Source of the DNA: Candidatus Kaiserbacteria bacterium
GTDB lineage: Bacteria; Patescibacteriota; Minisyncoccia; Phycocordibacterales; UBA918
NCBI GenBank assembly: GCA_016204695.1
Contig: JACQKD010000001.1
Coordinates: forward strand, 68,976-132,975
Reading direction: 5' to 3'
DNA: 64,000 nucleotides
The position numbers and the translations under genes are program-made. Below the pieces are notes generated by a model, which ran no database searches, had not been told where the DNA came from, and saw nothing but the letters and a program-made list of their open reading frames with translations. Shown in pieces: positions 3,744 to 36,042 of the stretch; within the stretch, counting starts at the first letter, position 1, and every line of letters starts with the position of its first letter.

Positions 3744-4556
3744 ATGGAATTCATCGTCGCGGCAGTACTAGGGCTCGTGCAGGGCATTACCGAGTTTCTC
3801 CCGGTTTCCTCGACCGGGCATCTTATTCTCGCCCGGGCCTTCTTGGGAGTGGAAGGGGCGGGCAGTCTCGCATTTGACGCGATACTGCATCTTGCGACCG
3901 CGCTCGCGGCGGTCACGTACTTTCGTCGCGACATCTGGTTGCTCGTTCAGACGTTTCTTCGCTACGTGGGCATGCTTCCGGTCGGCGGACGGGATGTCTC
4001 GCTCCTCTTTGCGGTTATTTTCGGCACGATCCCGGCGGCGATTGCGGGACTGTTTCTTGAGGAGTTGATGGAAACGGTATTTCGCTCTCCGCTCATCGTG
4101 GCGGCGATGCTGGTCGCTGGCGCAGTCCTGCTCGGTGCGGCGGAGTATGTGCATGCGCGCAAGCATCTGTTCAAAAAACATGTCACCGTCCAAAGCGGGG
4201 TGATCGTCGGCCTCTTCCAGACGCTGGCGCTGATCCCCGGAGTGTCCCGCTCGGGCGCCTCGATTTCAGGAGGTCTGTTCACGGGTCTTACGCGCGCCGA
4301 TGCGACCCGGTTCGCCTTTCTGCTCGCGATTCCCGTACTTCTCGGTGCCGGCGTTAAAAAGACACTCGAACTGCTTTCTCATGGAGAAGATGTTTTCTGG
4401 GCCCCCATTCTTTTTGGTGCGTTGGTCGCTTTCGCGGTCGGTTTCGGCGCGATCCATTTTATGATCACCTACTTGCGCCGTCACACCTTCTGGCCGTTCA
4501 TCTGGTACCGCGTTCTGCTCGCGGCTGTTGTCGCTTTACTCGTATTTGCCGGGTAG
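3744..4556 (+). CDS. uppP: Undecaprenyl-diphosphatase (BacA/UppP)
   Basis: BacA signature ITEFLPVSSTGHLIL, about 8 TM segments, 270 aa. Confidence 0.9.
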   Translation: MEFIVAAVLGLVQGITEFLPVSSTGHLILARAFLGVEGAGSLAFDAILHLATALAAVTYFRRDIWLLVQTFLRYVGMLPVGGRDVSLLFAVIFGTIPAAIAGLFLEELMETVFRSPLIVAAMLVAGAVLLGAAEYVHARKHLFKKHVTVQSGVIVGLFQTLALIPGVSRSGASISGGLFTGLTRADATRFAFLLAIPVLLGAGVKKTLELLSHGEDVFWAPILFGALVAFAVGFGAIHFMITYLRRHTFWPFIWYRVLLAAVVALLVFAG

Positions 4557-24425: not shown

Positions 24426-25073
24426 CTATAGTGCGTCGAAAAACTGCTTGAGCTGTGTACCGACGGCGCGCATGCCTTTCTCGGTGAGGTGACAGCCGTC
24501 GTCGAGTACTTCCTCTGGCGCATGCGGAGCGAGCGTTGGTCCCGCATGCACATCGCCTTGCGCCGCAAGCTCGCGGACGAGCTCCTCACCGCGCGCGAGG
24601 CCCTCCGTGCCGGTGATCCTGCATACACCTGTCTGGTACGACGGTAAGGCGGAGACGTAAATTTCGACTCCCGGAATCCGGCCCTTGATACCTGCAATGA
24701 CCTTTTGCGCGTCGGCAAGGGTCGGCGTGTCGTCGCGCGGCACGCACAACTGCCACCAGATGACGCGAGTATTGGGATGTGCGCCGAGGTAGCGGTCGAA
24801 GGTATGCCAGAAGTCATTGTCGATATTCGCCCATTCTCTCACCGTGCCGCTGTCGAAGTCATGTTTGCGGTCGTCTGTCAGTTGCCAGAGGTCGTCTCCT
24901 CCCGCCATGTGGTAGCCCATCACCGATTGGGCTGTATTCGAACAGCCGATAAATCCGATGGTTGCGTCCGCGTTCGTTTCAAGAGGTTCGGGTGCGCGGT
25001 CTTTCCACAGATAACAGACCGCAAAACCCGCCGCAAATGCAAGAGGAATCAAGAGTATCCACAGATGTCTCAT
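24426..25073 (-). CDS. Hypothetical secreted protein (possible SGNH/GDSL-like hydrolase fold)
   Basis: Start at MRHLWILLIPLAFAAGFA (signal anchor, ATG 25073); IGFIGCSNT block near the N-terminus; GC-rich like the core genome. Confidence 0.45.
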   Translation of the reverse strand: MRHLWILLIPLAFAAGFAVCYLWKDRAPEPLETNADATIGFIGCSNTAQSVMGYHMAGGDDLWQLTDDRKHDFDSGTVREWANIDNDFWHTFDRYLGAHPNTRVIWWQLCVPRDDTPTLADAQKVIAGIKGRIPGVEIYVSALPSYQTGVCRITGTEGLARGEELVRELAAQGDVHAGPTLAPHAPEEVLDDGCHLTEKGMRAVGTQLKQFFDAL

Positions 25074-25152: not shown

Positions 25153-26178
25153 ATGGATAGAAAAGTGCTAAAAATTCTTTTAGGGGTGGTGGCCGTCGTT
25201 GTGGTGAGCACAATTGTTTTCGCTAACATAAAACAAATAGACGATACAGAAACATTAACAGGAGGGATTGAGCAAACCACCACGGCGCCAGCTTCAAGTA
25301 TTGCGACAAATTCTAATCCGACAGAAGACAGTACAGAAAATTCAGAAGAATCTGAAATAGTTAAAAAAGAAACAATTGCGCAAAATGTTACGAGCGTGGA
25401 CACTGTAACGGCAAGCGAATCGGAATCCACGGAAGTACAGACTACGAAAAGGAGTGAAAGTATAGAAAATACTAATTGGTGGAAACCCCATCCAAATACA
25501 TCGTGGCAATGGCAACTGACGGGAACACTAAATCAAAACTATGCCGTTGATATGTATGACGTGGACTTATTTGATAATTCAAAAAAAGCGATACGTGCAT
25601 TGCAAACCAAAGGCATCAAGGTCATTTGCTATTTCAGTGCCGGAAGTTATGAAGATTGGAGAATCGACAAGGGTGATTTTCCAAATAAGGTCAAGGGAGA
25701 CACTCTTGAAGGATGGGCAAATGAGAGATGGCTTGATATTTCCAAAATTGACCTACTTGCACCGATTATGGAGAGCAGATTGGATTTGGCGGTAGAAAAA
25801 GGGTGTGATGGTGTTGAGCCGGATAATGTGGACGGTTATCTGAACGACACCGGACTTGCTTTGACTTATCAAGACCAATTGACATATAACAAATGGCTTG
25901 CGGGAGAGGCACACAAAAAGGGATTGGCTATTGGTTTGAAAAATGATCTCGAGCAAATTCCCGAACTGGTTGATTATTTTGATTTTGCGTTAAATGAACA
26001 ATGTTTTGAATATGATGAATGCGAAACGCTTTTGCCATTCATTGAGCAAAACAAAGCGGTGTTTGGAGTAGAATATGAATTACACACAAAGAAATTTTGC
26101 AACGAGGCAATCAAGTTGAACTTCGATTGGTTGAAGATGGAATACGACTTGGATGGCGGAAGAATCTCTTGCAGGTAG
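25153..26178 (+). CDS. Glycoside hydrolase family 114 (endo-alpha-1,4-polygalactosaminidase-like), membrane-anchored or secreted
   Basis: N-terminal TM anchor, acidic linker, then a GH114 TIM-barrel with the characteristic WQWQL motif and the FSAGSYEDWR / VEPDNVDGY segments. Confidence 0.7.
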   Translation: MDRKVLKILLGVVAVVVVSTIVFANIKQIDDTETLTGGIEQTTTAPASSIATNSNPTEDSTENSEESEIVKKETIAQNVTSVDTVTASESESTEVQTTKRSESIENTNWWKPHPNTSWQWQLTGTLNQNYAVDMYDVDLFDNSKKAIRALQTKGIKVICYFSAGSYEDWRIDKGDFPNKVKGDTLEGWANERWLDISKIDLLAPIMESRLDLAVEKGCDGVEPDNVDGYLNDTGLALTYQDQLTYNKWLAGEAHKKGLAIGLKNDLEQIPELVDYFDFALNEQCFEYDECETLLPFIEQNKAVFGVEYELHTKKFCNEAIKLNFDWLKMEYDLDGGRISCR

Positions 26179-26226
26179 TTTAAATTTGGCTCCCGAATTA
26201 AAACCTTCGCAAACCGTTGGAATTAT

Positions 26227-26913
26227 TTATAGAGCTATTTTCTGAGTTTGCGGAGATTTGAGAAAATCATTTATTTTATAAGTCATTTCTATGGTAACGA
26301 AAGGGGGTTTCTCTTGTGGAGCAAATAGTGGAGGTCTATTTTGCGCATCATTCAGTCTAACCGATGCTAAAACGAATTCATAAGGAGTTTCAGGCCTTAA
26401 ACTTTCACAAACCAATCTGTAAGTAGATACAATTCTAGTATTGCGTATAGGTATAATAGGTACGCTTTCTCCTTCTGTAGTTTCAAATGCGATTGCAGTG
26501 GTGGTCTGGTCTACTGGATAAAAGTCACAGCAAGGCATATCAATTACTTTGCCAACTCCAGCAATAAGATGGGGATTTTCGAATGTTATCCTCGAGTCAA
26601 AATCAGTTATTGTTTCGTTGCCATTGTTAATCAGAGTAAGTCGCGTCTCTGTCATGAATGTATTCCAATGGATACCGAAATACTCTCTTGTATAAGTGCT
26701 TGATGTGGCATATATCTCTATAACCACTGAATTCACTGGAGGGTGTATCCAATTTTTGATGTGTTTGAAAATACTGGGGTAATCGCGTAAAAAAGTCAGT
26801 AGAGAACAGATGGCAATAACCCCCATTAATACTGTTCCCAAGACTCCTCCCCCGAATGTTATTTTAAGGACTATAACTGCAATCAGTACAACAAATATCA
26901 TCGTGCTTATCAT
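26227..26913 (-). CDS. Hypothetical membrane-anchored protein (two N-terminal TM helices plus an extracytoplasmic domain)
   Basis: Low GC; no known family recognised. Confidence 0.45.
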   Translation of the reverse strand: MISTMIFVVLIAVIVLKITFGGGVLGTVLMGVIAICSLLTFLRDYPSIFKHIKNWIHPPVNSVVIEIYATSSTYTREYFGIHWNTFMTETRLTLINNGNETITDFDSRITFENPHLIAGVGKVIDMPCCDFYPVDQTTTAIAFETTEGESVPIIPIRNTRIVSTYRLVCESLRPETPYEFVLASVRLNDAQNRPPLFAPQEKPPFVTIEMTYKINDFLKSPQTQKIAL

Positions 26914-27047
26914 CTTGGCTCCCTACGTTGGACGAGTTCAGAACTATCAAATGGGACGAGTTTTTCAGAGAGGCAGAGTGGTTATCGGTCGCCGTGCCTA
27001 ACCTTGGCAATCTTGTTTCGGCATGAAAATAGCATATACTCCAATGT

Positions 27048-27554
27048 GTGCTGAACATACTCCATTTTGTCACTCCAGTTATTTTGTCGTTTGGCATTCT
27101 CATTACCATGTATTCCAAACTCATACTTGCTTTTGCTGTTGGGGCTATTGGCTCGGCCGCTTACATCACTGCACTTTATTTCAAGTTTATAGGTGAGACA
27201 GACGACCACAGGAGAATCATAATGATGCCGTTTCAGAACCTTGAGGGTATGTTGGACGGGACAACCATCAGAAAAATGAGTGTATCAAAATGTTTTTGGT
27301 ATTGTGTAGTGGGCGGTTGCATTGCTGTTATATTCCAATTTGATGTTCCTAATTTTGTCGCTGTACAGAGTTTGATACTTGGAGCGACATGGCCGGCGAT
27401 TGTGTCCCAGTTTCTGTCTGGCAGGATGGCAAGTCCTACATCTAGTGAGCTAGATTTGTTGAGAAGAGCGAGCTCCCCACTGTCTGTTGGAACTTCCTCT
27501 TTGGCAGAGCGTATAAGGAAAATAAAGGAACAAAGCAAACATGACAATCAATGA
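27048..27554 (+). CDS. Hypothetical polytopic small membrane protein (about 4 TM)
   Basis: 168 aa, hydrophobic helices, C-terminal polar tail; the stop overlaps the next gene's start by 14 nt. Confidence 0.45.
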   Translation: MLNILHFVTPVILSFGILITMYSKLILAFAVGAIGSAAYITALYFKFIGETDDHRRIIMMPFQNLEGMLDGTTIRKMSVSKCFWYCVVGGCIAVIFQFDVPNFVAVQSLILGATWPAIVSQFLSGRMASPTSSELDLLRRASSPLSVGTSSLAERIRKIKEQSKHDNQ

Positions 27555-27996
27555 ATTACTAAAAAAGCCGATTGAGATAATGTTAGAAAATAATGTCTCT
27601 GACGACATCGTTCAACCAAGCGATGTAGTTTCAAAATTACTTGAAAGGGTAGCGAGATTTTCTGACCAATCGGCCCTTGACTTTTTGATTGTTTATGCAG
27701 ACAAGGTGGACGGAAATTACTCAGCAAAAGCAGTAATCACACATAAGGAATTATCGGCACTTTTGGATTTAGTACAAGCACCAAACAATGCGGAAAAAAC
27801 CGTTCAGGAACTTGATTTAGAGGCTAAGTTTCCACTTAGATACTGGCTACATAAAAACGACCCCATTGAAAAAGCATACAATTTGTTTAAGGCAGACCTG
27901 ACCGATACCATAATCATCCTTGATGAGAAAGAAATATATGTTGGGAAAGTCAAACGGAATCCTTTTGTGGAGCGACTAAAAATACTACTTTCTTAG
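27541..27996 (+). CDS. Hypothetical soluble protein, translationally coupled to the upstream membrane protein
   Basis: 151 aa with no recognised motif; in an operon with 27048 and 28036. Confidence 0.45.
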   Translation: MTINELLKKPIEIMLENNVSDDIVQPSDVVSKLLERVARFSDQSALDFLIVYADKVDGNYSAKAVITHKELSALLDLVQAPNNAEKTVQELDLEAKFPLRYWLHKNDPIEKAYNLFKADLTDTIIILDEKEIYVGKVKRNPFVERLKILLS

Positions 27997-28035
27997 TGTC
28001 TTTGCTTTTCTTTACTCTGTAAAGTAAAGTAAAGC

Positions 28036-28824
28036 GTGATGGGTAGTACTCTCACGCAATCGGCACAACAAACTCTCAAGTTTTTTGAGGAGTTTATTAG
28101 GAGAAAAGAGGTTGCTGATTTTATTAAGAAATATAGGGCATATCTCAACTTACCTCCGAGTGGTCTATCTCTCACTAAAGAGGATGAGAGGGAACTGAAA
28201 GAAGGTGTACTACCACATTTGTATATTCCAACAAGAGCCAGAGAAGCATATCCAAAAGATGAAAAAGAGAAACCGTTTAGGGTAGTAAACACCTGTCTGG
28301 CTTTTACGGGGCAACAAGGAGTCAAACTATGGAGTGTAGGGTTGATGCTATTGCATTACCTATTTTTTAATAGAATTACCGCTATACCAGTCAACTTTTT
28401 AGGTACCAATAGAGACGACTTGCTTCGGTTGGAGTATTTGCCAGACGAGCTTTTATGGTTTGATAATGAGGACCACTTTCTTCTCAAATGTATGTACGAA
28501 CATTTTGATGAGGTAAGCAAGACACATCCGGTTGTTTTATACATAAACCCCGAAGTATCCCAGCGACAAATACAGGATTTCCTTGCTAAAAATTGGGCGG
28601 AGATTGAGCAGTACAGAAAGGATGTAAAAAGCCCCATTACCGGTCCGAGAAAGAAAAATAAGCGCACACAGGAGCGCAATGATTTCATTTATGAGCACCG
28701 ACAACTGCCGAGAAAGGAGATAATGCATCTCCTCTATGATAAATATGGAGCCGAGCTTGATATTGATTACGGATACATCGGCAAGATAATCTCGTTGGAA
28801 AAAAAGAGGCGTGAAAAGAAGTGA
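28036..28824 (+). CDS. Hypothetical protein with a basic C-terminal tail (possible nucleic-acid binding)
   Basis: 262 aa; C-terminal KKNKRTQERN...EKKRREKK is basic; no recognised family. Confidence 0.45.
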   Translation: MMGSTLTQSAQQTLKFFEEFIRRKEVADFIKKYRAYLNLPPSGLSLTKEDERELKEGVLPHLYIPTRAREAYPKDEKEKPFRVVNTCLAFTGQQGVKLWSVGLMLLHYLFFNRITAIPVNFLGTNRDDLLRLEYLPDELLWFDNEDHFLLKCMYEHFDEVSKTHPVVLYINPEVSQRQIQDFLAKNWAEIEQYRKDVKSPITGPRKKNKRTQERNDFIYEHRQLPRKEIMHLLYDKYGAELDIDYGYIGKIISLEKKRREKK

Positions 28825-28848
28825 TTGCGGATACTTTCCGCAATCACT
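28821..28848. terminator. Hairpin gtgattgcgg-N8-ccgcaatcac overlapping the stop of the 28036 gene (terminator or origin structure)
   Basis: Perfect 10-bp inverted repeat. Confidence 0.45.
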
Positions 28849-28881
28849 TATGTCTTATACAGACAGTTTTCTGACGGATAA

Positions 28882-28907
28882 CCTGTAGTCGCACGCTACA
28901 GGTTTTT
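28882..28907 (+). terminator. Rho-independent terminator cctgtag-tcgcacg-ctacagg-ttttt
   Basis: 7-bp stem followed by T5. Confidence 0.6.
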
Positions 28908-29088
28908 ATGTTTTCAGAGCCAGAAAACGAGTACAAAACGATAAGCCAAGACACCGATATTGTCCGGCGGGTTTTTGATGACTTTGAGGCACGGAGCAAC
29001 TTTGTTGGCTTCTTTGACCTTGCGTTCAAAGTTGCAAAGCGAAACCCGACGCTGTGGGCGGATATTAGCGGACAAGCACAACCACGCC

Positions 29089-30219
29089 ATGATTGATACT
29101 GTCATCCTCTCTGTTCCAAGAGATAAAGTAATTACGCTTGACGAAACGGCGCGCGGGGTTGCGCCGTGGGACCTGCACGAACGGACGCAGTCCTATAGCG
29201 TCTATGTGAAAAATCCGTCAAGCAAGGACAAGGCAACGGGTCTGTCTTTTCCGCGTCTTACTGGCTGGCGCAGAAGAAACTATGGCGGCATAGGAGGATG
29301 GACATCAGTCCTAAAGATTGAGTTTTCTGTCGCAAAACTCCTCTATAAAAACAATGTGGACGAATTAGAGGATGGGCAATTTGCGCTCGTGGTTGATACT
29401 CTATTGGACCGATTGGACCGGATGGGTGTGCGAATACAGAGGCAGGATATTGAACTGGCAGAGGTACGCGCCGTGCATTACGCGAAAAACATTGAACTTA
29501 CCAGTGGGTACACCTCGCTCTATGCGCTTGGCGAGCTTGGAAAGGTGAATATCACTAAACGATTGGACATGACGAAAACGCGGTTTGTAAACGATGGCGA
29601 GAGTTTGTGCTTTTACGCCAAGTCGCACTCGGTCGTACTGTATGACAAGATAGCCGACTTGCGGAAAAACCAAAAACGGGCGGTAGACCTTGAGCAAACG
29701 GCGTACCAGATGAGTTTGTTTCCCTCACTCAACAATGTGCGCGAGATTTTGCGTCTTGAGGTCCGGTTGAGCGAAAAACGAAAAATGAGCAGTGTCTTTC
29801 AGAAGCTCGGTATACCAGAAAACCCGACTTTCAAGGATGTGTTCTGTGCCAAGAAAAGCCAGATGGTAGTGCGGCACTACTGGGATACGATGATTGAGGG
29901 CAACAGCTTACTCCTGTTCTCGCATTCGCTCACAGCAAAAGACCTGCTCAAGCAAATACTTATCGCACGACCAGACGCAAAGGCGACAAAGCCCATTTAT
30001 CTTGCCGGTCTCGTGCTTCTCGCCCGCGAGGGCAACGGCTTGCGCGAACTGCGGACAATTCTTGCGAAGCGAAGCAATGACCGGCTATGGTATCGGTTAC
30101 GGACTGACCTTGCGGACACAACGGCTGGGCTGGACAGATTGCGACCGCGTGAGTGGTATGACCAAGTGAAAGGGGCACTGGAGAGTTATCAACCTGTGCA
30201 TTTGCACTGTAAAGAATAG
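29089..30219 (+). CDS. Rolling-circle replication initiator, Rep_trans family (pT181 RepC-like)
   Basis: The segment SVVLYDKIADLRKNQK...ILRLEVRLSEKRK matches the Rep_trans active-site region (RIYNK...WRVEIELKR). Start set at MIDTVILSVPRD (29089); the longer ORF starts at 28960. Confidence 0.6.
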   Translation: MIDTVILSVPRDKVITLDETARGVAPWDLHERTQSYSVYVKNPSSKDKATGLSFPRLTGWRRRNYGGIGGWTSVLKIEFSVAKLLYKNNVDELEDGQFALVVDTLLDRLDRMGVRIQRQDIELAEVRAVHYAKNIELTSGYTSLYALGELGKVNITKRLDMTKTRFVNDGESLCFYAKSHSVVLYDKIADLRKNQKRAVDLEQTAYQMSLFPSLNNVREILRLEVRLSEKRKMSSVFQKLGIPENPTFKDVFCAKKSQMVVRHYWDTMIEGNSLLLFSHSLTAKDLLKQILIARPDAKATKPIYLAGLVLLAREGNGLRELRTILAKRSNDRLWYRLRTDLADTTAGLDRLRPREWYDQVKGALESYQPVHLHCKE

Positions 30220-30228
30220 TCAAGTATT

Positions 30229-30438
30229 ATGAGGGATGTAAACATGGTGCAAAGTATGAAAAAATCAAACAAGGAGTTTTATACGGCCCAAGAACTTGCC
30301 GACAAGCTGTCACTCAATGTGATGACCATTTATCGGTACATAGATAGGGGCACACTGAAAGCGTACAAAATTGGCAAGGAGTTTCGGATTGAGAAAGACG
30401 AGTTTGAGAAGTTTCTGAATAAGGCAAAAATAAAATAA
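30229..30438 (+). CDS. Excisionase-family helix-turn-helix DNA-binding protein (candidate recombination directionality factor or regulator)
   Basis: YTAQELADKLSLNVMTIYRYIDRGTLKAYKIGKEFRIEKDEFEKFL matches the excisionase-family HTH consensus. Confidence 0.6.
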   Translation: MRDVNMVQSMKKSNKEFYTAQELADKLSLNVMTIYRYIDRGTLKAYKIGKEFRIEKDEFEKFLNKAKIK

Positions 30439-30441
30439 TTT

Positions 30442-31989
30442 ATGGCATCACTCAATTTCAAAGGAAAGTCGGCGGTTTGGAACCATCACTTATCGGTCCC
30501 GTATCACACGCTTGACTTAGACGTAAAAAAGTCCCGCAAGGGCGCGGACAGCGACGAGAACCTTATCATCCACGGAGACAATTTGCTTGCGCTCAAGGCC
30601 CTATTACCCAAATACCAAGGCCGTATAAAGTGCATCTACATTGACCCGCCTTACAACACTGGGAACGAGAACTGGGTGTATAACGACAAGGTAAACAGTC
30701 CGCTTATCAAAGAGTGGCTAGGCAAGACAGTCGCCAAAGACGACCTCACCAAACATGACAAGTGGCTCTGCATGATGACTCCGCGTCTCAAGCTCCTGCG
30801 GGACCTACTTGCCGATGATGGCGTGATTTTTGTGAGCATTGACGATAACGAGCAAGCACACTTGAAAAATCTAATGGATGAAATTTTTGACGAGGGCAAC
30901 TTTATTGGTGAGTTAATTCACCAAAGGGCAAAGGGTGGTGGTCAAGCGAAACAAGTTGTAAAAGGGCATGATTATATCTGTGCCTACGCAAAAAACATTG
31001 ATAGTGGAATAGTTTTAAGGAGAGCCAAAGTTATCCAACAGGATGTTGTGGAAATAGATGGAAAGGAGTATTTGCGCGACGACGATGTTGTAAGAAAACA
31101 GTTTGGTAAATACGACAAATCTCTCGGAGACAGAAGGTGTTTTTATGAGGAATTAGAGAAATATAAGGGACCAACCAAGAAAAAAGAAATTGACGAAAAA
31201 ATAAAGACCGGCGAACTGGTTTTAGAAAAACATCGGAATGGCATGCGTCTGATTGTGAGGTACACATTATTAGACGAAACATCATCAAAGTTATACTCAA
31301 TAATCAAGGTGCTTTCCGAAGACGGAAAAGATGATTTAGCAGACTTGGGTATCCAAGGGTTTAATTATCCAAAACCAGTTGAACTAATTAGACAACTTAT
31401 TCAGTCCGTCATTCTCAACTCCAACACTAAAAATGAAATTATTTTAGATTCTTTTGCTGGTTCCGGCACCACCGCTCATGCGGTCATCAACCTCAATAAA
31501 GAGGATGGCGGCAACCGGAAGTTTATTTTAGTTGAGATGGAGGACTATGCCGACAAAATAACCGCAGAGCGCGTCCGGCGCGTGATTAAAAAAGACAAGC
31601 TCAAGACCGGCTTCTCGTTCTACAACCTCGGACCGGCCATTGATGCCGAAACGATATTGACTGGTAAGCTCCCAACCTACGAACAATTTGCCAAGTATGT
31701 GTTTTATCTTGCTACTGGCAAGAATCTGAAAGACGAAAAGAAAATAAAAGAGAAAGAGTATTTTGTTGGTAAAGATGGCAACGAGACAATCTACCTGCTC
31801 TACAAACAGGACCCAGAAGCCCTAAAAACGCTCGCCATTACGCTGGACTGGGCGCAGATGGCCCATGGTAAGCACGCCGATAAGAAAATCGTTTACGCGC
31901 CCGCGTGCTACTTGGACGAGGAATCGCTGGATAAGTTCAATATCCAGTTCGTAAGCATTCCCTATAACCTCTTTGAAAAGACAACCTAA
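30442..31989 (+). CDS. Type III restriction-modification system methyltransferase (Mod), N6-adenine, beta-class
   Basis: Motif IV IYIDPPYNTGN comes before motif I DSFAGSGTTAHA (beta-class order). The gene sits directly upstream of the res gene. Confidence 0.85.
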   Translation: MASLNFKGKSAVWNHHLSVPYHTLDLDVKKSRKGADSDENLIIHGDNLLALKALLPKYQGRIKCIYIDPPYNTGNENWVYNDKVNSPLIKEWLGKTVAKDDLTKHDKWLCMMTPRLKLLRDLLADDGVIFVSIDDNEQAHLKNLMDEIFDEGNFIGELIHQRAKGGGQAKQVVKGHDYICAYAKNIDSGIVLRRAKVIQQDVVEIDGKEYLRDDDVVRKQFGKYDKSLGDRRCFYEELEKYKGPTKKKEIDEKIKTGELVLEKHRNGMRLIVRYTLLDETSSKLYSIIKVLSEDGKDDLADLGIQGFNYPKPVELIRQLIQSVILNSNTKNEIILDSFAGSGTTAHAVINLNKEDGGNRKFILVEMEDYADKITAERVRRVIKKDKLKTGFSFYNLGPAIDAETILTGKLPTYEQFAKYVFYLATGKNLKDEKKIKEKEYFVGKDGNETIYLLYKQDPEALKTLAITLDWAQMAHGKHADKKIVYAPACYLDEESLDKFNIQFVSIPYNLFEKTT

Positions 31990-31991
31990 CT

Positions 31992-34478
31992 ATGCTCAAG
32001 GACTATCAAGTGGATGTGGTCAACAAGGTCAAGGACTTTTTCGATACGCTAGATACCAAGCGCGCGACATTTGAAAATCTGCCAAACGACATAAAAGCCA
32101 GTCTTGGTACTGACTACTTATCGTTTGCATTTACCGGTACTCCCTACGCACAATTTGCGGACCGGCCGCGTTCGGGCGCAGGCGCGCTCTACCCGCGCGT
32201 GTGCATCAAAATGCCGACCGGCGGCGGCAAGACATTGATAGCGATTGAAACCATCCGCGCCTATCAAAACATTTTCGCAAAGCGCAAAACCGGTCTCGTG
32301 GTCTGGATAACACACCGCGAGCAAATATACCGCCAGACGATTGAAAACTTGCAAAACAAGAGCCATATCTACCGACAACTTTTGGACCAAGCGAGCGGCA
32401 ACCGCACCATCATCCTTGAGAAAGGCCAGCCGATACGCGAGCAGGATGTACGGGAAAACCTTGTTGTGCTAATGCTGATGATTCAATCGGCCGCCAGAGA
32501 CACGAATAAAATCTTTGAGGATAGCGGCGGATACACGGACTTTTTTCCTACGGATAATCGCTATGACTTACATAAAAAATTGATTGAGGCCGTTCCGAAC
32601 CTTGATAAAACACCGGAGAGCTTGTGGGACCAGATGCAAGTGAAAACGAGCTTGGGCAATGTGGTACGCACGCTCTCTCCGCTCATCATCGTGGACGAGT
32701 TTCATACTATGTTTACCGACAATGCACGGGCAACACTGGACGGACTCAATCCGAGCGTGATTGTCGGGCTGTCGGCGACTCCGAAGCGAGAAATGAATCT
32801 GCTCGTCAATATAACTGGCCAGCAGTTGAAAGCCGCAGAAATGATAAAGCTAGACATGCACCTCTTTGCGCCAACGCAAAACGGCGATTGGCGAGGGATG
32901 CTGGCGGGTATCAAGCAAAAGCGCGACCAGCTTGAGCGCAAGGCGCGGAAACTAGAACAGAACCAAGGCGCGTACATCCGACCGATTGCGCTTATCCAAG
33001 TGGAGCGCACCGGCCGAGACCAACGAGGGCGGGGATTGGTCCATAGCGAAGATGTCCGTGAGCATCTGGTGAGCTTGGGCGTACCGAGGCACGAGATAGC
33101 AGTCAAATCAAGCTCGTTGGACGAGATAAAACAGCAGAAGCTCCTCTCCAAAGAGAGCGAGGTGCGATATATCATCACGAGAGAGGCATTAAAAGAGGGT
33201 TGGGACTGCTCATTTGCCTACATTCTCGGCGTGATACCGAACGCGCGCAATAATTCGTCCATGACGCAACTAGTCGGTCGTGTTCTGCGCCAACCCTACG
33301 CGAAGAAAACCGGCGTTGCCGAACTAGACGAGAGTTACATCTACTTTGCGAGCGGACACACGCAGGAAGCGTTGGAGCGAGTGAAAAAGGGTTTTGACGA
33401 GGAAGGGTTAGGTGATGTCTCCGGCGGCATCCAAACGCTAGATAAGCGAGGACAAGTCGTGTCTGCGCCACGGGTAGTAAGAATCAAAAAAGATATTCTC
33501 AAGGATTATCCAGAATCGCTCTTTTTGCCGGTGTGGTTGATGAAACAGGGCACGACATATCGCCGCTTTGTGTATGAGGTTGATATAAAACCTGCTATTC
33601 GTTGGCAAGATGTCGTGCTTGAGGATTGGATGTCGCACATCATGCCATCCATCGGAACGACCCGCAGACGACAGACAGAAGTGATAGTAGGGCTGGAACC
33701 CGAAACGACAGCTCGGCAGTCAGAAGTGGACGAGGCCACAACCTTTGATGTGTTGTATCTGGCACGCCGACTCTACGAGACGATTGAAAATGCGTTTATT
33801 GCTTATGACATGGCCGCACAAGTGGTTGCCGCCTTGAGTGGACAGGTATCACAAGAATGGCTGGACCGAGATGCCGGATATATTGCGAGAGAGCTGGAAA
33901 TGCACCTCTTGACGCATCGCAAGACGGCAGAAAACACGATATTCAGTGAGCTGATGGAAAGCGGGCAGTTATGCCTTGCTGTGTCGGATGATGATGATTT
34001 GGGATTCACTATGCCGCGTACCGATGTAGTTGAAAACAATATCCGCTCGGCCTACGGCCTGACGCTGTACGAAGATGTTGATGTCGGCTCACTCAATCTG
34101 CTAGAACGAGAAGTGGCGCGCATTATTGAGGCCAGCCCGAAAGTGCTTTGGTGGGCGCGCAATAAGGTAGCGAGGGAATGGTATGCGATACAGGGCTGGC
34201 AGAGGGGCAAAGTGCGGCCGGACTTTATCATTGCGCGGAAAGATAAGAATGACGAGCTTGAGTTTGTGTATGTGGTTGAGAGCAAGGGCGAGCATTTGAT
34301 TGGCAACGCGGACACACAGTACAAGGACGAGGTTTTTGAACGGATGAATAACATGCGGGGTAAGATTAAAAAGTTACTGTTTCGCACCACGACAGTCCGG
34401 CTCAACGACCGTTTCGAGTTTGAGTTATTGCCGCAAAACGAGGAGGAGTTGCGATTACGCACTAAATTGAATGCATAA
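31992..34478 (+). CDS. Type III restriction endonuclease (Res): SF2 helicase-like ATPase with a C-terminal PD-(D/E)xK nuclease
   Basis: Walker A CIKMPTGGGKTLIA, DEAH-like IIVDEFHTM, motif III GLSATP, and C-terminal PDFIIARKD...EFVYVVESKGEH. Confidence 0.85.
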   Translation: MLKDYQVDVVNKVKDFFDTLDTKRATFENLPNDIKASLGTDYLSFAFTGTPYAQFADRPRSGAGALYPRVCIKMPTGGGKTLIAIETIRAYQNIFAKRKTGLVVWITHREQIYRQTIENLQNKSHIYRQLLDQASGNRTIILEKGQPIREQDVRENLVVLMLMIQSAARDTNKIFEDSGGYTDFFPTDNRYDLHKKLIEAVPNLDKTPESLWDQMQVKTSLGNVVRTLSPLIIVDEFHTMFTDNARATLDGLNPSVIVGLSATPKREMNLLVNITGQQLKAAEMIKLDMHLFAPTQNGDWRGMLAGIKQKRDQLERKARKLEQNQGAYIRPIALIQVERTGRDQRGRGLVHSEDVREHLVSLGVPRHEIAVKSSSLDEIKQQKLLSKESEVRYIITREALKEGWDCSFAYILGVIPNARNNSSMTQLVGRVLRQPYAKKTGVAELDESYIYFASGHTQEALERVKKGFDEEGLGDVSGGIQTLDKRGQVVSAPRVVRIKKDILKDYPESLFLPVWLMKQGTTYRRFVYEVDIKPAIRWQDVVLEDWMSHIMPSIGTTRRRQTEVIVGLEPETTARQSEVDEATTFDVLYLARRLYETIENAFIAYDMAAQVVAALSGQVSQEWLDRDAGYIARELEMHLLTHRKTAENTIFSELMESGQLCLAVSDDDDLGFTMPRTDVVENNIRSAYGLTLYEDVDVGSLNLLEREVARIIEASPKVLWWARNKVAREWYAIQGWQRGKVRPDFIIARKDKNDELEFVYVVESKGEHLIGNADTQYKDEVFERMNNMRGKIKKLLFRTTTVRLNDRFEFELLPQNEEELRLRTKLNA

Positions 34479-36009
34479 CAACACTATGAAAGCAGTCATT
34501 TTAGCGAGAGTATCAACCGAGGAGCAGAAAGATGCGGGCAATTCTCTGCCAGCGCAGATTGAGCGTATAAAGGCGTATTGTGCGCGCAGGGGGCTTGAGG
34601 TAGCGGAGACATTTAGCTTTGACGAGAGTGCGTATAAAACAAAACGGGACGAGTTTGATAAAATCCTCTCTTTTGTAAACGAGTCAAAAGAGAAAATCGC
34701 CATTTGTTTTGACAAGGTAGACCGGTTGTCCCGCAACATCTTTGATAAGCGGGTTGCCCTGTTGTACGAAAAAGCAGTTGCCGATGAGATAGAGTTACAC
34801 TTTGTCTCGGATGGGCAAGTCATCAATAATGCGATGAATGCGGGCGACAAGTTTCGTTTTGGAATGCAACTCGGGCTTTCCAAATACTACTCGGACGCGA
34901 TTAGCGACAATGTGAAGCGGGCGTTTGAGCAGAAGCGGCGCAACGGCGAGTGGACTGGTCCGGTGCGTATTGGGTACAAAAATGTCTCGCTGGATAGCGA
35001 GAAGCGATTGCGGAAAGACATTATGCTTGACCCAGAGCGCGCGCCCTTGGTGAAGAAACTTTTTGAGCTTTACGCTATGGGTAATGATTCCATTACGACC
35101 TTGTGGCGCAAGATAACCGAGATGGGCCTTAAAAGTCCGAACGGCAATATGCTCGCGCGGAGCAATGTTGAGCTGATACTCAAGGACTCGTTCTATTACG
35201 GCACGGCTCACTCGCACAGATATGGACTCTACGAGCATCGCTACCCGCGTCTTATTTCAAGAGAACTATTTGAGAAGTGTCAAGAAGTGCGCCTTGGCAG
35301 GAGCTGGAAACGGTCAAAACTTGCCTCTGCGATGGAGTACATTTTCAAGGGATTGCTTACCTGCAAACGCTGTGGCTGTTTGATGACACCAGAAATAAAG
35401 AAGGGCAAGTTTATCTATTACTCGTGCACAAACGCCAAGGGGATATGTAAACGGCTCTATGTGCCGGAAAAAACGCTCCTAGAGCGCGTCCATGCTATTT
35501 TTAGCGATTTTGAAAGTATCCCGAGAGATGTGCAGGAACGGCTAGTTGACGAACTCCGCGCGCTCAATGAGAGCGAGAAGGACTATCATAATAAGCAACT
35601 GGTACGAGTGAGAGCTGAATACGACCGCGTGCAGAAGCGAGTCAATGCTCTGTTGGATATGCGTTTGGACCAGAGTATTACCCACGCCGACTATGACAAA
35701 AAACTACAAGAGCTCAAAGATGAGCAGTACCATTTGGACATAGAAGCCGAGGAGTATACCAAGGCCGACCACGAGTACCATATCCATGTAGGTACTGTGT
35801 TCAACCTTGCCCGCCGTATGAAAGACATTTTTGAGAGTTCTGAAATTGTGGAAAAACGCGCCTTTCTCAACTTCCTACTTCAGAACCCGACCGTATCGGG
35901 CAAAAACCTAGAGTTTACCTTGCGAAAACCTTTCAATCTGATACATGAACTCGCTCTCAATCCTAACTGGCTCCGCGGGCTGGATTCGAACCAGCGACCA
36001 ACGCTTTAA
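34471..36009 (+). CDS. Large serine recombinase/integrase (resolvase domain + recombinase domain + zinc ribbon + coiled coil)
   Basis: Catalytic Ser context AVILARVSTEEQ, then DKVDRLSRN, the recombinase domain, zinc ribbon CKRCGC...YYSCTNAKGIC and a coiled coil. The last 42 nt lie inside tRNA-Asn. Confidence 0.85.
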   Translation: MHNNTMKAVILARVSTEEQKDAGNSLPAQIERIKAYCARRGLEVAETFSFDESAYKTKRDEFDKILSFVNESKEKIAICFDKVDRLSRNIFDKRVALLYEKAVADEIELHFVSDGQVINNAMNAGDKFRFGMQLGLSKYYSDAISDNVKRAFEQKRRNGEWTGPVRIGYKNVSLDSEKRLRKDIMLDPERAPLVKKLFELYAMGNDSITTLWRKITEMGLKSPNGNMLARSNVELILKDSFYYGTAHSHRYGLYEHRYPRLISRELFEKCQEVRLGRSWKRSKLASAMEYIFKGLLTCKRCGCLMTPEIKKGKFIYYSCTNAKGICKRLYVPEKTLLERVHAIFSDFESIPRDVQERLVDELRALNESEKDYHNKQLVRVRAEYDRVQKRVNALLDMRLDQSITHADYDKKLQELKDEQYHLDIEAEEYTKADHEYHIHVGTVFNLARRMKDIFESSEIVEKRAFLNFLLQNPTVSGKNLEFTLRKPFNLIHELALNPNWLRGLDSNQRPTL

Positions 36010-36042
36010 CAGAGCGCCGCTCTACCACTGAGCTACCGCGGA
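35968..36042 (-). tRNA. tRNA-Asn (anticodon GUU)
   Basis: I folded it by hand. The 7-bp acceptor stem TCCGCGG/CCGCGGA, the D arm GCTC-AGTGGTA-GAGC, the anticodon stem-loop GCGCT-CUGUUAA-AGCGT (GUU) and the T arm GCTGG-TTCGAAT-CCAGC are all present, with discriminator G and an encoded CCA; 75 nt. Confidence 0.9.

Follow-up and report, generated by a model that had tools for sequence, protein, structure and literature searches.

The window analysed here, by which we mean the whole stretch of 64,000 nucleotides from a Candidatus Kaiserbacteria bacterium (contig JACQKD010000001.1), shows a low-GC island that ends at a gene for tRNA-Asn. An element of 9,052 bp (26916-35974) is integrated at the 3' end of this gene, with all its genes on the + strand: a left arm with two open reading frames (ORFs) is followed by a 262-aa ORF, two hairpins, a small ORF and the gene rep, and then by an HTH_17 gene, a restriction-modification (R-M) pair and a large serine recombinase (Table 1). 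The original prediction, made from the sequence alone, had seen in the product of rep (Rep) a rolling-circle initiator of the pT181 type and in the hairpins upstream of it a candidate double-strand origin. We consider it probable that Rep belongs to the gpII (Phage_CRI)/Rep_trans superfamily as a tyrosine nicking-joining enzyme, the nicking activity being predicted from its relatives, while for the hairpins we come to a different interpretation.

Table 1. Features of the integrated element and its target gene, with positions in the window
Feature	Position	Strand	Remarks
attL core TGGCTCC	26916-26922	+	identical 7-mer to the tRNA-Asn 3' end, 35968-35974
Detached 3' end of the serine recombinase frame (WLPTLDEFRTIKWDEFFREAEWLSVAVPNLGNLVSA, then stop)	26916-27026	+	joined to the gene only in the circular form
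ORF, 168 aa	27048-27554	+	left-arm cargo with hydrophobic stretches; no Pfam match
ORF, 151 aa	27541-27996	+	no Pfam match
Three tandem GTAAAG repeats	28019-28034	+	just upstream of the 262-aa gene; 1 match against 0.01 expected by chance; likely regulator-binding site (predicted)
ORF, 262 aa	28036-28824	+	C-terminal ~100 aa conserved upstream of rep in a subset of elements
Hairpin 1	28819-28831 / 28837-28849	+	perfect 13-bp inverted repeat, 5-nt loop TACTT
Candidate -10 box TCTTATAC	28853-28860	+	putative promoter of small ORF and rep
Hairpin 2 with T-run	28880-28909	+	perfect 9-bp repeat 28880-28888 / 28896-28904; 10 pairs with one G.U; loop TCGCACG
Small ORF	28908-29096	+	62 aa, motif NxVGxFDLxxKxxKRNP; stop overlaps the rep ATG; translationally coupled to rep
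rep ORF	29089-30219	+	376 aa, start MIDTVILSVP; predicted to be a divergent gpII (Phage_CRI)/Rep_trans protein, with Tyr185 as the likely catalytic residue and Asp3 and Glu224 as likely metal ligands
Promoter-like site TTGCAC-N17-TATTAT	30202-30230	+	window copy TTGCAC...GTCAAGTATTAT; spacer with two GTAAAG-like repeats; overlap with the stop codon of rep
HTH_17 (excisionase-type) gene	30244-30438	+	PF12728, E 1.3e-13; after rep in nearly all loci
Cargo: type III-like R-M pair	30442-34478	+	N6_N4 methylase 30442-31989 (PF01555, 6.1e-34); ResIII helicase-nuclease 31992-34478 (PF04851, 1e-16)
Large serine recombinase, integrated form	34471-36009	+	512 aa; Resolvase 1e-21, Recombinase 4.9e-14, Zn_ribbon_recom 2.4e-8
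tRNA-Asn (GTT), target	35968-36042	-	ARAGORN; Rfam 73.2 bits; attR core TGGCTCC 35968-35974

The rep ORF and its YDK...LRLEVRL segment are present as first described: Rep contains VVLYDKIADL, which includes Tyr185, and ILRLEVRLSEKRK at residues 220-232. The protein is 100% identical to a hypothetical protein from a Candidatus Kaiserbacteria genome and has hundreds of full-length, unnamed homologues in Patescibacteria; an exhaustive profile search brought together 1,200 clusters at 50% identity, all of them full-length, unannotated and confined to Patescibacteria. The affinity of this family is displayed by its homologue P0251, which shares 32% identity with the window Rep over the full length (BLASTP 6e-48) and reaches 41.4 bits on the Phage_CRI profile PF05144 ('Replication-associated protein G2P N-terminal'), for which the cutoff is 21.7; the match (E 1.8e-10) extends over positions 1-216 of the 232 in the profile. 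Phage_CRI is matched by 7 of 40 diverse Rep homologues, and matches to PF02486 (Rep_trans) that stay below the threshold occur in 12 of 36 and 3 of 40 homologues, the best at 1.2e-7. The window Rep itself is matched by the PHROGs family phrog_702, 'replication protein', at 8.7e-5. It matched nothing in NCBIfam, sequence and profile searches of the PDB found no Rep structure for it, and tblastn with Rep and P0251 against 50,697 phage records and 72,556 plasmids returned nothing. The AlphaFold model of Rep (predicted local distance difference test, pLDDT, 88; predicted template modelling score, pTM, 0.84) matches five viral structures of BFVD in Foldseek (E 1.1e-9 to 7.8e-7, probability 1.00), one of which is named Replication-associated protein G2P (Inoviridae sp.); these targets are predicted, not solved, structures, and the Foldseek comparison with the PDB gave no match to the solved RepD, RepDE or RepSTK1.

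The pattern of conserved residues points in the same direction. Rep_trans proteins are characterized by the motifs N' (Asp), I (RxD), II (T/SxY/ExG), III (YxKxxE, with the catalytic Tyr) and IV (W/LxRxE), all five of which are shared by Phage_CRI proteins, and their catalytic Tyr sits in a beta-strand, unlike in HUH enzymes (PMC5714925, citing Carr et al. 2016 for the motifs). Conservation was scored across 40 diverse Rep homologues, in which Asp3, Gly170, Tyr185, Lys187 and Glu224 are invariant and His130, Asp186, Asp190, Arg222 and Arg226 almost invariant. The context of the catalytic tyrosine is conserved, with Tyr185-x-Lys187-x-x-Asp190 and Leu-Arg222-x-Glu224 invariant or almost so. Motif III reads Y185-D-K187-I-A-D190, with Asp in place of Glu, and Tyr185 falls within a beta-strand predicted at 180-186 in the AlphaFold model. 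Motif IV reads I220-L-R222-L-E224, the counterpart of L-W-R-V-E214 in RepC and L-V-R-F-E245 in gpII, and motif N' corresponds to the invariant Asp3, M13 gpII likewise beginning with MID. Motif II is recognizable in part, as F-x-N168-D-G170 with its invariant Gly, in a register relative to T-K-Y-F-G of RepC that is not fixed. The strand aligned to S-R-I-D of gpII reads A-x-V-x-A-V-H130 in the Rep family, the His being almost invariant. In an hhalign comparison the Rep family is colinear with M13 gpII over 255 columns, with a weak statistic (P 0.036); it places Glu224 on Glu245 and Tyr185 on Tyr197, the Tyr of LVAYLKH, which we take to be the catalytic residue of gpII. The Tyr and the motif IV Glu stand at 197 and 245 in M13 gpII and at 191 and 214 in pT181 RepC. 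Judged by these sequence and fold comparisons, Rep appears to be a divergent clade of the gpII/Rep_trans superfamily, closer to gpII and outside PF02486 as now modelled. The proposed pT181-type identity is thereby retained at the level of the superfamily, through motifs III and IV, and given up at the level of the family, where Rep lacks a PF02486 match and is closer to gpII. Of the two results that together would have refuted the original prediction, the lack of a PF02486 match was obtained, whereas the context of the catalytic Tyr proved to be conserved.

In the integrated state the recombinase gene runs into the antisense strand of tRNA-Asn, which supplies its last 12 codons and gives the 512-aa form. 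Splicing 34471-35974 to 26923-27026 produces an ORF of 535 aa with a single terminal stop, in which the recombinase continues in frame across the TGGCTCC core into a conserved tail (..WLPTLDEFRTIKWDEFFREAEW..; ..LDEFRTxxW..). Uninterrupted recombinase ORFs with the same tail are found in the loci L004, L009, L016, L055, L060, L094, L147 and L158, and the tail motif occurs at the left end of about 28 integrated relatives; the left end of the element was recognized by a motif of the form TGGCTCC + N7-8 + GTGGACGxxTTCAGAAC, which about 28 related loci share at a distance of 1.5-3.4 kb upstream of rep. The recombinase ORF spans the attachment (att) site, and integration therefore swaps the C-terminus of the enzyme. 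This swap could serve as a directionality switch for recombination.

One relative, L158 (Ga0074195_1005837), is a contig of 8,981 nt with the same backbone and an intact attP. We take it to be a circular form: it ends in a direct repeat of 123 nt, lacks a tRNA and has its recombinase gene uninterrupted, reading through the att core into the conserved tail. The same junction of recombinase and left arm is present in L094, L147 and L165, and this is the usual signature of a circular molecule. The cargo of L158 consists of an HpaII-type restriction enzyme and a C5 methylase, and its opposite strand encodes a 710-aa membrane-anchored ATPase of the HerA/FtsK type (DUF87, E 1.5e-12), which was found only in L158 and not in the window element.

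The backbone of Rep and serine recombinase is present in 156 species-representative genomes and 441 metagenome stretches, so that the combination, first described as uncommon, is not rare in bacteria of the Candidate Phyla Radiation (CPR); comparable combinations are known in actinomycete integrative elements and in the phage phiRSM1 (PMC3218068). Most of the 82 loci that formed our first comparison set show the order rep, HTH_17, cargo, serine recombinase, tRNA, and across 80 loci taken from species-representative genomes rep is almost universally followed by HTH_17, then variable cargo, then the serine recombinase. The recombinase abuts a tRNA gene in 44 of the 61 loci in which this could be judged (Asn 35, Gln 5, Asp 2, His 1, Leu 1). 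What varies is the cargo slot between HTH_17 and the recombinase, which often holds R-M genes: type III-like in the window, HpaII-type in L158 and other methylase/ResIII pairs elsewhere. The element family seems to be a vehicle for defence genes in CPR bacteria. We found no description of it in the literature, and an article on gene transfer in Patescibacteria makes no mention of integrases or recombinases (PMC12455944).

Both hairpins upstream of rep are real structures. Hairpin 1 is the perfect inverted repeat that had been noticed, with arms of 13 bp rather than 10 bp, the span 28821-28848 first given for it lying inside the full repeat. The TGA stop codon of the 262-aa ORF before it falls within its 5' arm in part, and loci with the same type of upstream gene have an analogous hairpin in the corresponding position (L042, L075, L054, L012). 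Hairpin 2 is likewise present with its T-run, which in the window reads TTTTT and leads to the ATG at 28908. The 116 nt that contain both hairpins (28810-28925) fold at -43 kcal/mol against -22.9 +/- 3.1 kcal/mol for shuffled sequences (z = -6.5), none of 200 shuffles being as good, so that the observation of the hairpins stands. One correction concerns the space between the hairpins and rep, which is coding: the conserved 62-aa small ORF fills it.

Hairpin 2 is more than an incidental terminator. We built a covariance model on 21 copies and searched 82 sources (1.18 Mb) with it: the model found 44 matches, one per locus, all on the + strand and 150-200 nt before rep, and no match elsewhere, which places hairpin 2 at the same position in 44 related loci. 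Its pairing is kept in 93% of cells, with compensatory changes at 6 pairs, and at one pair U.G is the commonest state, which on the other strand would give C.A. A T-run followed by the ATG of the small ORF comes after hairpin 2 in 45 of 45 copies; under strict criteria 75 of 149 loci show the succession of hairpin, T-run and ATG, compared with 12 of 666 control segments. In more divergent loci a hairpin occupies the position of hairpin 2 with a stem of unrelated sequence. The loops differ among relatives, and most contain Y-A-A (ACAA, ATAA, TAAT). On the 5' side of hairpin 2 there are several mutually unrelated types of sequence, which track the type of the upstream gene, while hairpin 2 remains unchanged. 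In 11 loci, which belong to the subtype of the window, CTTATA stands exactly 25 nt before hairpin 2; if it is the -10 box, hairpin 2 lies at the 5' end of the rep-operon transcript. An Rfam scan returned tRNA only.

We also observe that L001, L005, L016, L022, L025, L045, L058 and L069 carry two to three GTCTTA(A/G) direct repeats, partly palindromic (GTCTTAAG...CTCAAGAC), before hairpin 2. These loci have a different upstream gene, and other subtypes carry repeats containing CTTAAG; the repeats are iteron-like.

How could these parts work together? The promoter-like site between rep and the HTH_17 gene would drive the HTH_17 protein, the R-M cargo and the recombinase. The element would excise as a circle, restoring the full-length recombinase gene, whereupon Rep would nick one strand at an origin, stay attached through Tyr185 and prime rolling-circle copying. 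Such copying would keep or amplify the circle until it re-integrates or arrives in another cell. Rolling-circle replication after excision, which the original prediction suggested, is plausible by homology; the circular relative L158 lends it indirect support, while the replication itself is something we infer. That Rep is an initiator of the gpII/Rep_trans type in the service of an excising element we regard as quite probable.

A number of observations weigh against this interpretation. The window Rep has no Pfam match even at E <= 1, neither to PF05144 nor to PF02486, the family in which it had been expected; its membership of PF05144 rests on transitive homology, since it has no match of its own and the homologue P0251 passes. 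The Rep family offers no clear conserved counterpart of motif I (RxD), the hhalign statistic against the single gpII sequence is weak, and the comparison with a single RepC aligns just 28 columns. The circular contig belongs to a relative and not to the window element, and a tandem array could assemble alike. An origin or nick site was not located in the element, and the case for replication accordingly comes entirely from homology. Finally, the sense-strand wobbles of hairpin 2 are equally compatible with an RNA and with a hairpin formed by the nicked DNA strand, and the conservation of hairpin 2 in the rep module beside a variable repeat region is similar to the layout of an origin that combines a nick site with a binding site.

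These last points bear directly on what the hairpins do. If hairpin 2, with or without hairpin 1, were the double-strand origin, Rep would nick in or beside its loop and the variable repeats on its 5' side would be the site of specific Rep binding. This would be in keeping with the place of hairpin 2 in the rep module, where it is kept across elements with differing upstream genes, and with its dimensions: its size (9-10 bp stem, 5-11 nt loop) and its distance of ~190 nt before rep resemble the M13 origin, whose nick sequence TTCTTTAATAGTGGACTC lies ~220 nt before gene II, and its size also resembles the pT181 inverted repeat IR-II. The strand with the wobble pairs is the one nicked by gpII and RepC, the Y-A-A of most loops loosely recalls T'AA, and the adjacent variable repeats (GTCTTAAG and similar) recall the arrangement of a conserved nick site with a variable binding site. 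However, what defines the origins of Rep_trans and MOBT systems is the nick motif CT'AA, placed in the loop of a hairpin rich in G/C (PMC9371924), and this motif, conserved across both kinds of system, is absent from the loops of hairpins 1 and 2; nor do hairpins with CTAA in the loop show positional conservation anywhere in the elements of the 82 loci. The loop sequences vary, that of the window (TCGCACG) being without AA, and divergent relatives keep the structure, the T-run and the ATG but not the sequence, which is typical of terminators. A nick site needs no T-run, yet none of the copies is without one. The double-strand origin of the original prediction is thus not supported, and we hold it to be unlikely, if worth keeping in view; among possible origins hairpin 2 is still the best candidate. 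Two other candidate sites were considered and rejected: YTNTAATAG at 28365, inside the 262-aa ORF, occurs once in the window against 1.56 expected and is attributed to chance, and the conserved 12-mer GTAAAGTATAAT after rep forms TTGCTA-17 nt-TATAAT directly before the HTH_17 gene, where a promoter is the preferred reading. It could alternatively be supposed that both hairpins are ordinary intrinsic terminators of the upstream operon, unconnected with rep, given that they pass a terminator scan on the + strand and follow immediately on the 262-aa gene. Taken by itself the scan counts for nothing, since it found 3 terminator-like sites where 3.1 were expected. For hairpin 2 the idea is contradicted by the preservation of its sequence and position where the upstream gene is unrelated, and this hairpin lies immediately before the start codon of the small ORF to which rep is coupled. 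Such a role for both hairpins is in our view improbable. Because it is conserved, covarying, marked by U.G wobbles, followed by the T-run and ATG and independent of the upstream gene, we assign hairpin 2 to the module of the small ORF and rep, with an action on the sense strand. Most likely it is a transcription terminator or attenuator in the leader, or a stem controlling translation, with the presumed role of limiting Rep dosage. We read hairpin 1 as terminating the 262-aa gene; it may also serve as an operator that covers the -35 region of the promoter of the rep operon. On balance we lean towards the hairpins being regulatory or terminator structures rather than an origin.

The part played by Rep and the nature of the whole element can be construed in other ways too. 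Rep_trans relatives act as relaxases in Tn916, ICEBs1, ICESt3 and streptococcal mobilizable elements, and Rep might be a MOBT-like relaxase that nicks an origin of transfer (oriT) for movement from cell to cell, vegetative replication being secondary; the membrane-anchored HerA/FtsK-type ATPase of L158 could then translocate DNA. However, the window element has neither such an ATPase nor a coupling protein or secretion genes, and the transfer functions that were looked for in it (TraB-type ATPase, relaxase with coupling protein, oriT) were not found. The Rep family is moreover closer to phage gpII than to PF02486, opens with the catalytic MIDT strand where MOBT proteins typically have an N-terminal helix-turn-helix (HTH), and comes without the MOBT nick motif, all of which makes a relaxase improbable. 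The closeness to gpII raises instead the thought of a defective or satellite filamentous prophage, in which Rep would make single-stranded circles to be packaged by a helper inovirus. The best matches by profile and by fold are to inovirus G2P; inoviruses have been reported in CPR bacteria and can use serine recombinases (PMC6813254), and the filamentous phage phiRSM1 integrates into a tRNA 3' end by such an enzyme. Against a prophage origin speaks the lack of a Zot/pI-type morphogenesis ATPase or a recognizable cluster of coat proteins in L158 and among those ORFs of the window element that a Pfam scan covered. Only one partial relative was found among the 2.9 million contigs of IMG/VR and no tblastn match among the phage records, and almost half of the element is R-M cargo. 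We regard the prophage as a very improbable explanation. The reading of Rep as a nicking-joining enzyme of an excising element is the one we retain. A more far-reaching version of it would see in the family integrative episomes that replicate themselves and are peculiar to CPR/Patescibacteria. Their initiators would form a gpII/Rep_trans clade not classified before, with an origin type of its own, possibly hairpin 2, and their recombinase gene, which spans attP (535 aa in the circle, 512 aa when integrated), would act as a built-in direction switch; this we put forward tentatively, as a speculation with the odds against it.

The small ORF is open at 43-67 aa in 43 loci, its stop overlapping or abutting the rep ATG, and its core reads (N/R)LVGxF(D/A/V)(L/W)L(I/L)xxDK(K/R)xNP. 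It matched nothing in Pfam, NCBIfam or PHROGs, and its product may be an accessory factor of Rep. The promoter-like site has the family consensus TTGCTATGTAAAGnnnnGTAAAGTATAAT, of which 12 nt are exact in 47 of 82 loci and in each case lie in the interval from rep to the HTH_17 gene; in its family form, TTGCTA-TGTAAAGnnnnGTAAAG-TATAAT, the spacer contains two GTAAAG repeats. The occurrence of the same GTAAAG hexamer before the 262-aa gene and after rep suggests one regulator for both. An inverted CTTTAC lies beside the upstream repeats, at 28010-28015. The HTH_17 gene is better started at 30244 or 30256 than at the listed 30229, since the ATG at 30229 is inside the -10 box, and its protein is likely a recombination directionality factor or a regulator. 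The 262-aa ORF has no Pfam match above threshold and a weak match to phrog_668, 'HTH DNA binding protein' (E 0.12); by tblastn its C-terminal part was matched in about 30 loci.

The left boundary was sought among other candidates as well. A long repeat of the tRNA 3' half was not found, the true attL sharing the 7-nt core only, and a near-match of 14 nt, located at 24928 in a host gene of high GC, is attributed to chance. A second copy of TGGCTCCC is located at 26189-26196, right after a GH114 glycosidase gene (25153-26178), and between it and attL there is a low-GC ORF for a 228-aa membrane protein on the - strand (26227-26913), whose start codon abuts attL. This arrangement could have been left behind when another element once inserted at this tRNA. 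In L079, L035, L025, L013 and L014, too, 14-19 nt of the tRNA 3' end are repeated farther out, at 200-350 bp beyond the true attL.

To our knowledge, almost nothing is known about plasmids and other self-replicating elements of CPR/Patescibacteria, whose hosts are mostly uncultured and hard to manipulate. A small, widespread family with an initiator, an integrase directed to tRNA sites and a free circular form is a starting point for shuttle and integration vectors, and it offers a route to understanding how restriction-modification and other defence genes spread among CPR bacteria. The Rep family extends the gpII/Rep_trans superfamily into a further clade, the genes of which are annotated as hypothetical everywhere because current Pfam models miss it. 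The recombinase gene split by integration gives, in addition, an idea of how serine integrases might sense their own state.

Integrating rolling-circle elements at tRNA genes are already known. What sets the present family apart is the clade of initiators missed by Pfam, the CPR host, the canonical nick motif that is missing and an element in which virion or transfer genes were not found. With RepC and RepD of the pT181 family, Rep shares motif III (Y-x-K-x-x-(E/D)), motif IV (L-x-R-x-E) and a Tyr in a beta-strand, and some of its relatives match PF02486 weakly; unlike RepC, the window Rep has no PF02486 match, no Foldseek match to solved Reps and no RxD motif I. The origin of pT181 lies inside repC (CTCTAATAGCCGGTT at 4366-4380, the ORF starting at 4289) with CT'AA in the loop, which is not so here. 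The leader of repC nevertheless provides a parallel to hairpin 2, in that a terminator-like stem lies just before the start codon of the rep operon; this comparison is based on what we take to be attenuator and countertranscript control of the repC leader. The MOBT relaxases (NicK of ICEBs1, Orf20 of Tn916, RelSt3 of ICESt3) are nickases of the Rep_trans superfamily in integrated elements that excise as circles, and some of them drive rolling-circle replication; MOBT systems have an N-terminal HTH, a CT'AA nick hairpin and a conjugation apparatus, none of which was found in the present element.

In function the nearest systems are, beside such elements with Rep_trans-type relaxases and the phage phiRSM1, the actinomycete integrative and conjugative elements (AICEs) such as pSAM2, which are small, sit at tRNA 3' ends, excise and then replicate by rolling circle, some of them having serine recombinases at tRNA-Leu (PMC3218068). 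Their initiators (RepSA) are of the HUH type, unlike the gpII/Rep_trans-type Rep, and the host phylum differs. AICEs carry a TraB-type transfer ATPase, which the window element does not have. Filamentous phages carry a replication initiator of the gpII type. Among them, phiRSM1 of Ralstonia integrates at a tRNA 3' end through a serine recombinase, described as resolvase-like in a reference title of the article concerned (PMC3218068). phiRSM1 is a complete virus, whereas the window element is without virion genes and has a large serine recombinase of 512-535 aa. A resolvase-like recombinase, as in phiRSM1, is presumably a small enzyme. As for gpII of the Ff phages itself, the window Rep differs from it in being below Pfam detection, and the element in having no phage morphogenesis genes, in its CPR host and in integrating through a large serine recombinase; nothing in the hairpins of the window corresponds to TTCTTT'AATAG, the nick sequence of M13. 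Yet the two proteins are of similar length (410 aa in gpII, 376 aa in Rep) and share an N-terminal start of the form MID...L..P. The hhalign comparison sets them colinearly, with Tyr197 placed on Tyr185 and VRFE on LRxE, a member of the Rep family passes PF05144, and the predicted fold matches inovirus G2P models. Like rep, the gpII gene is preceded by structured DNA, which lies ~200 nt upstream of it.

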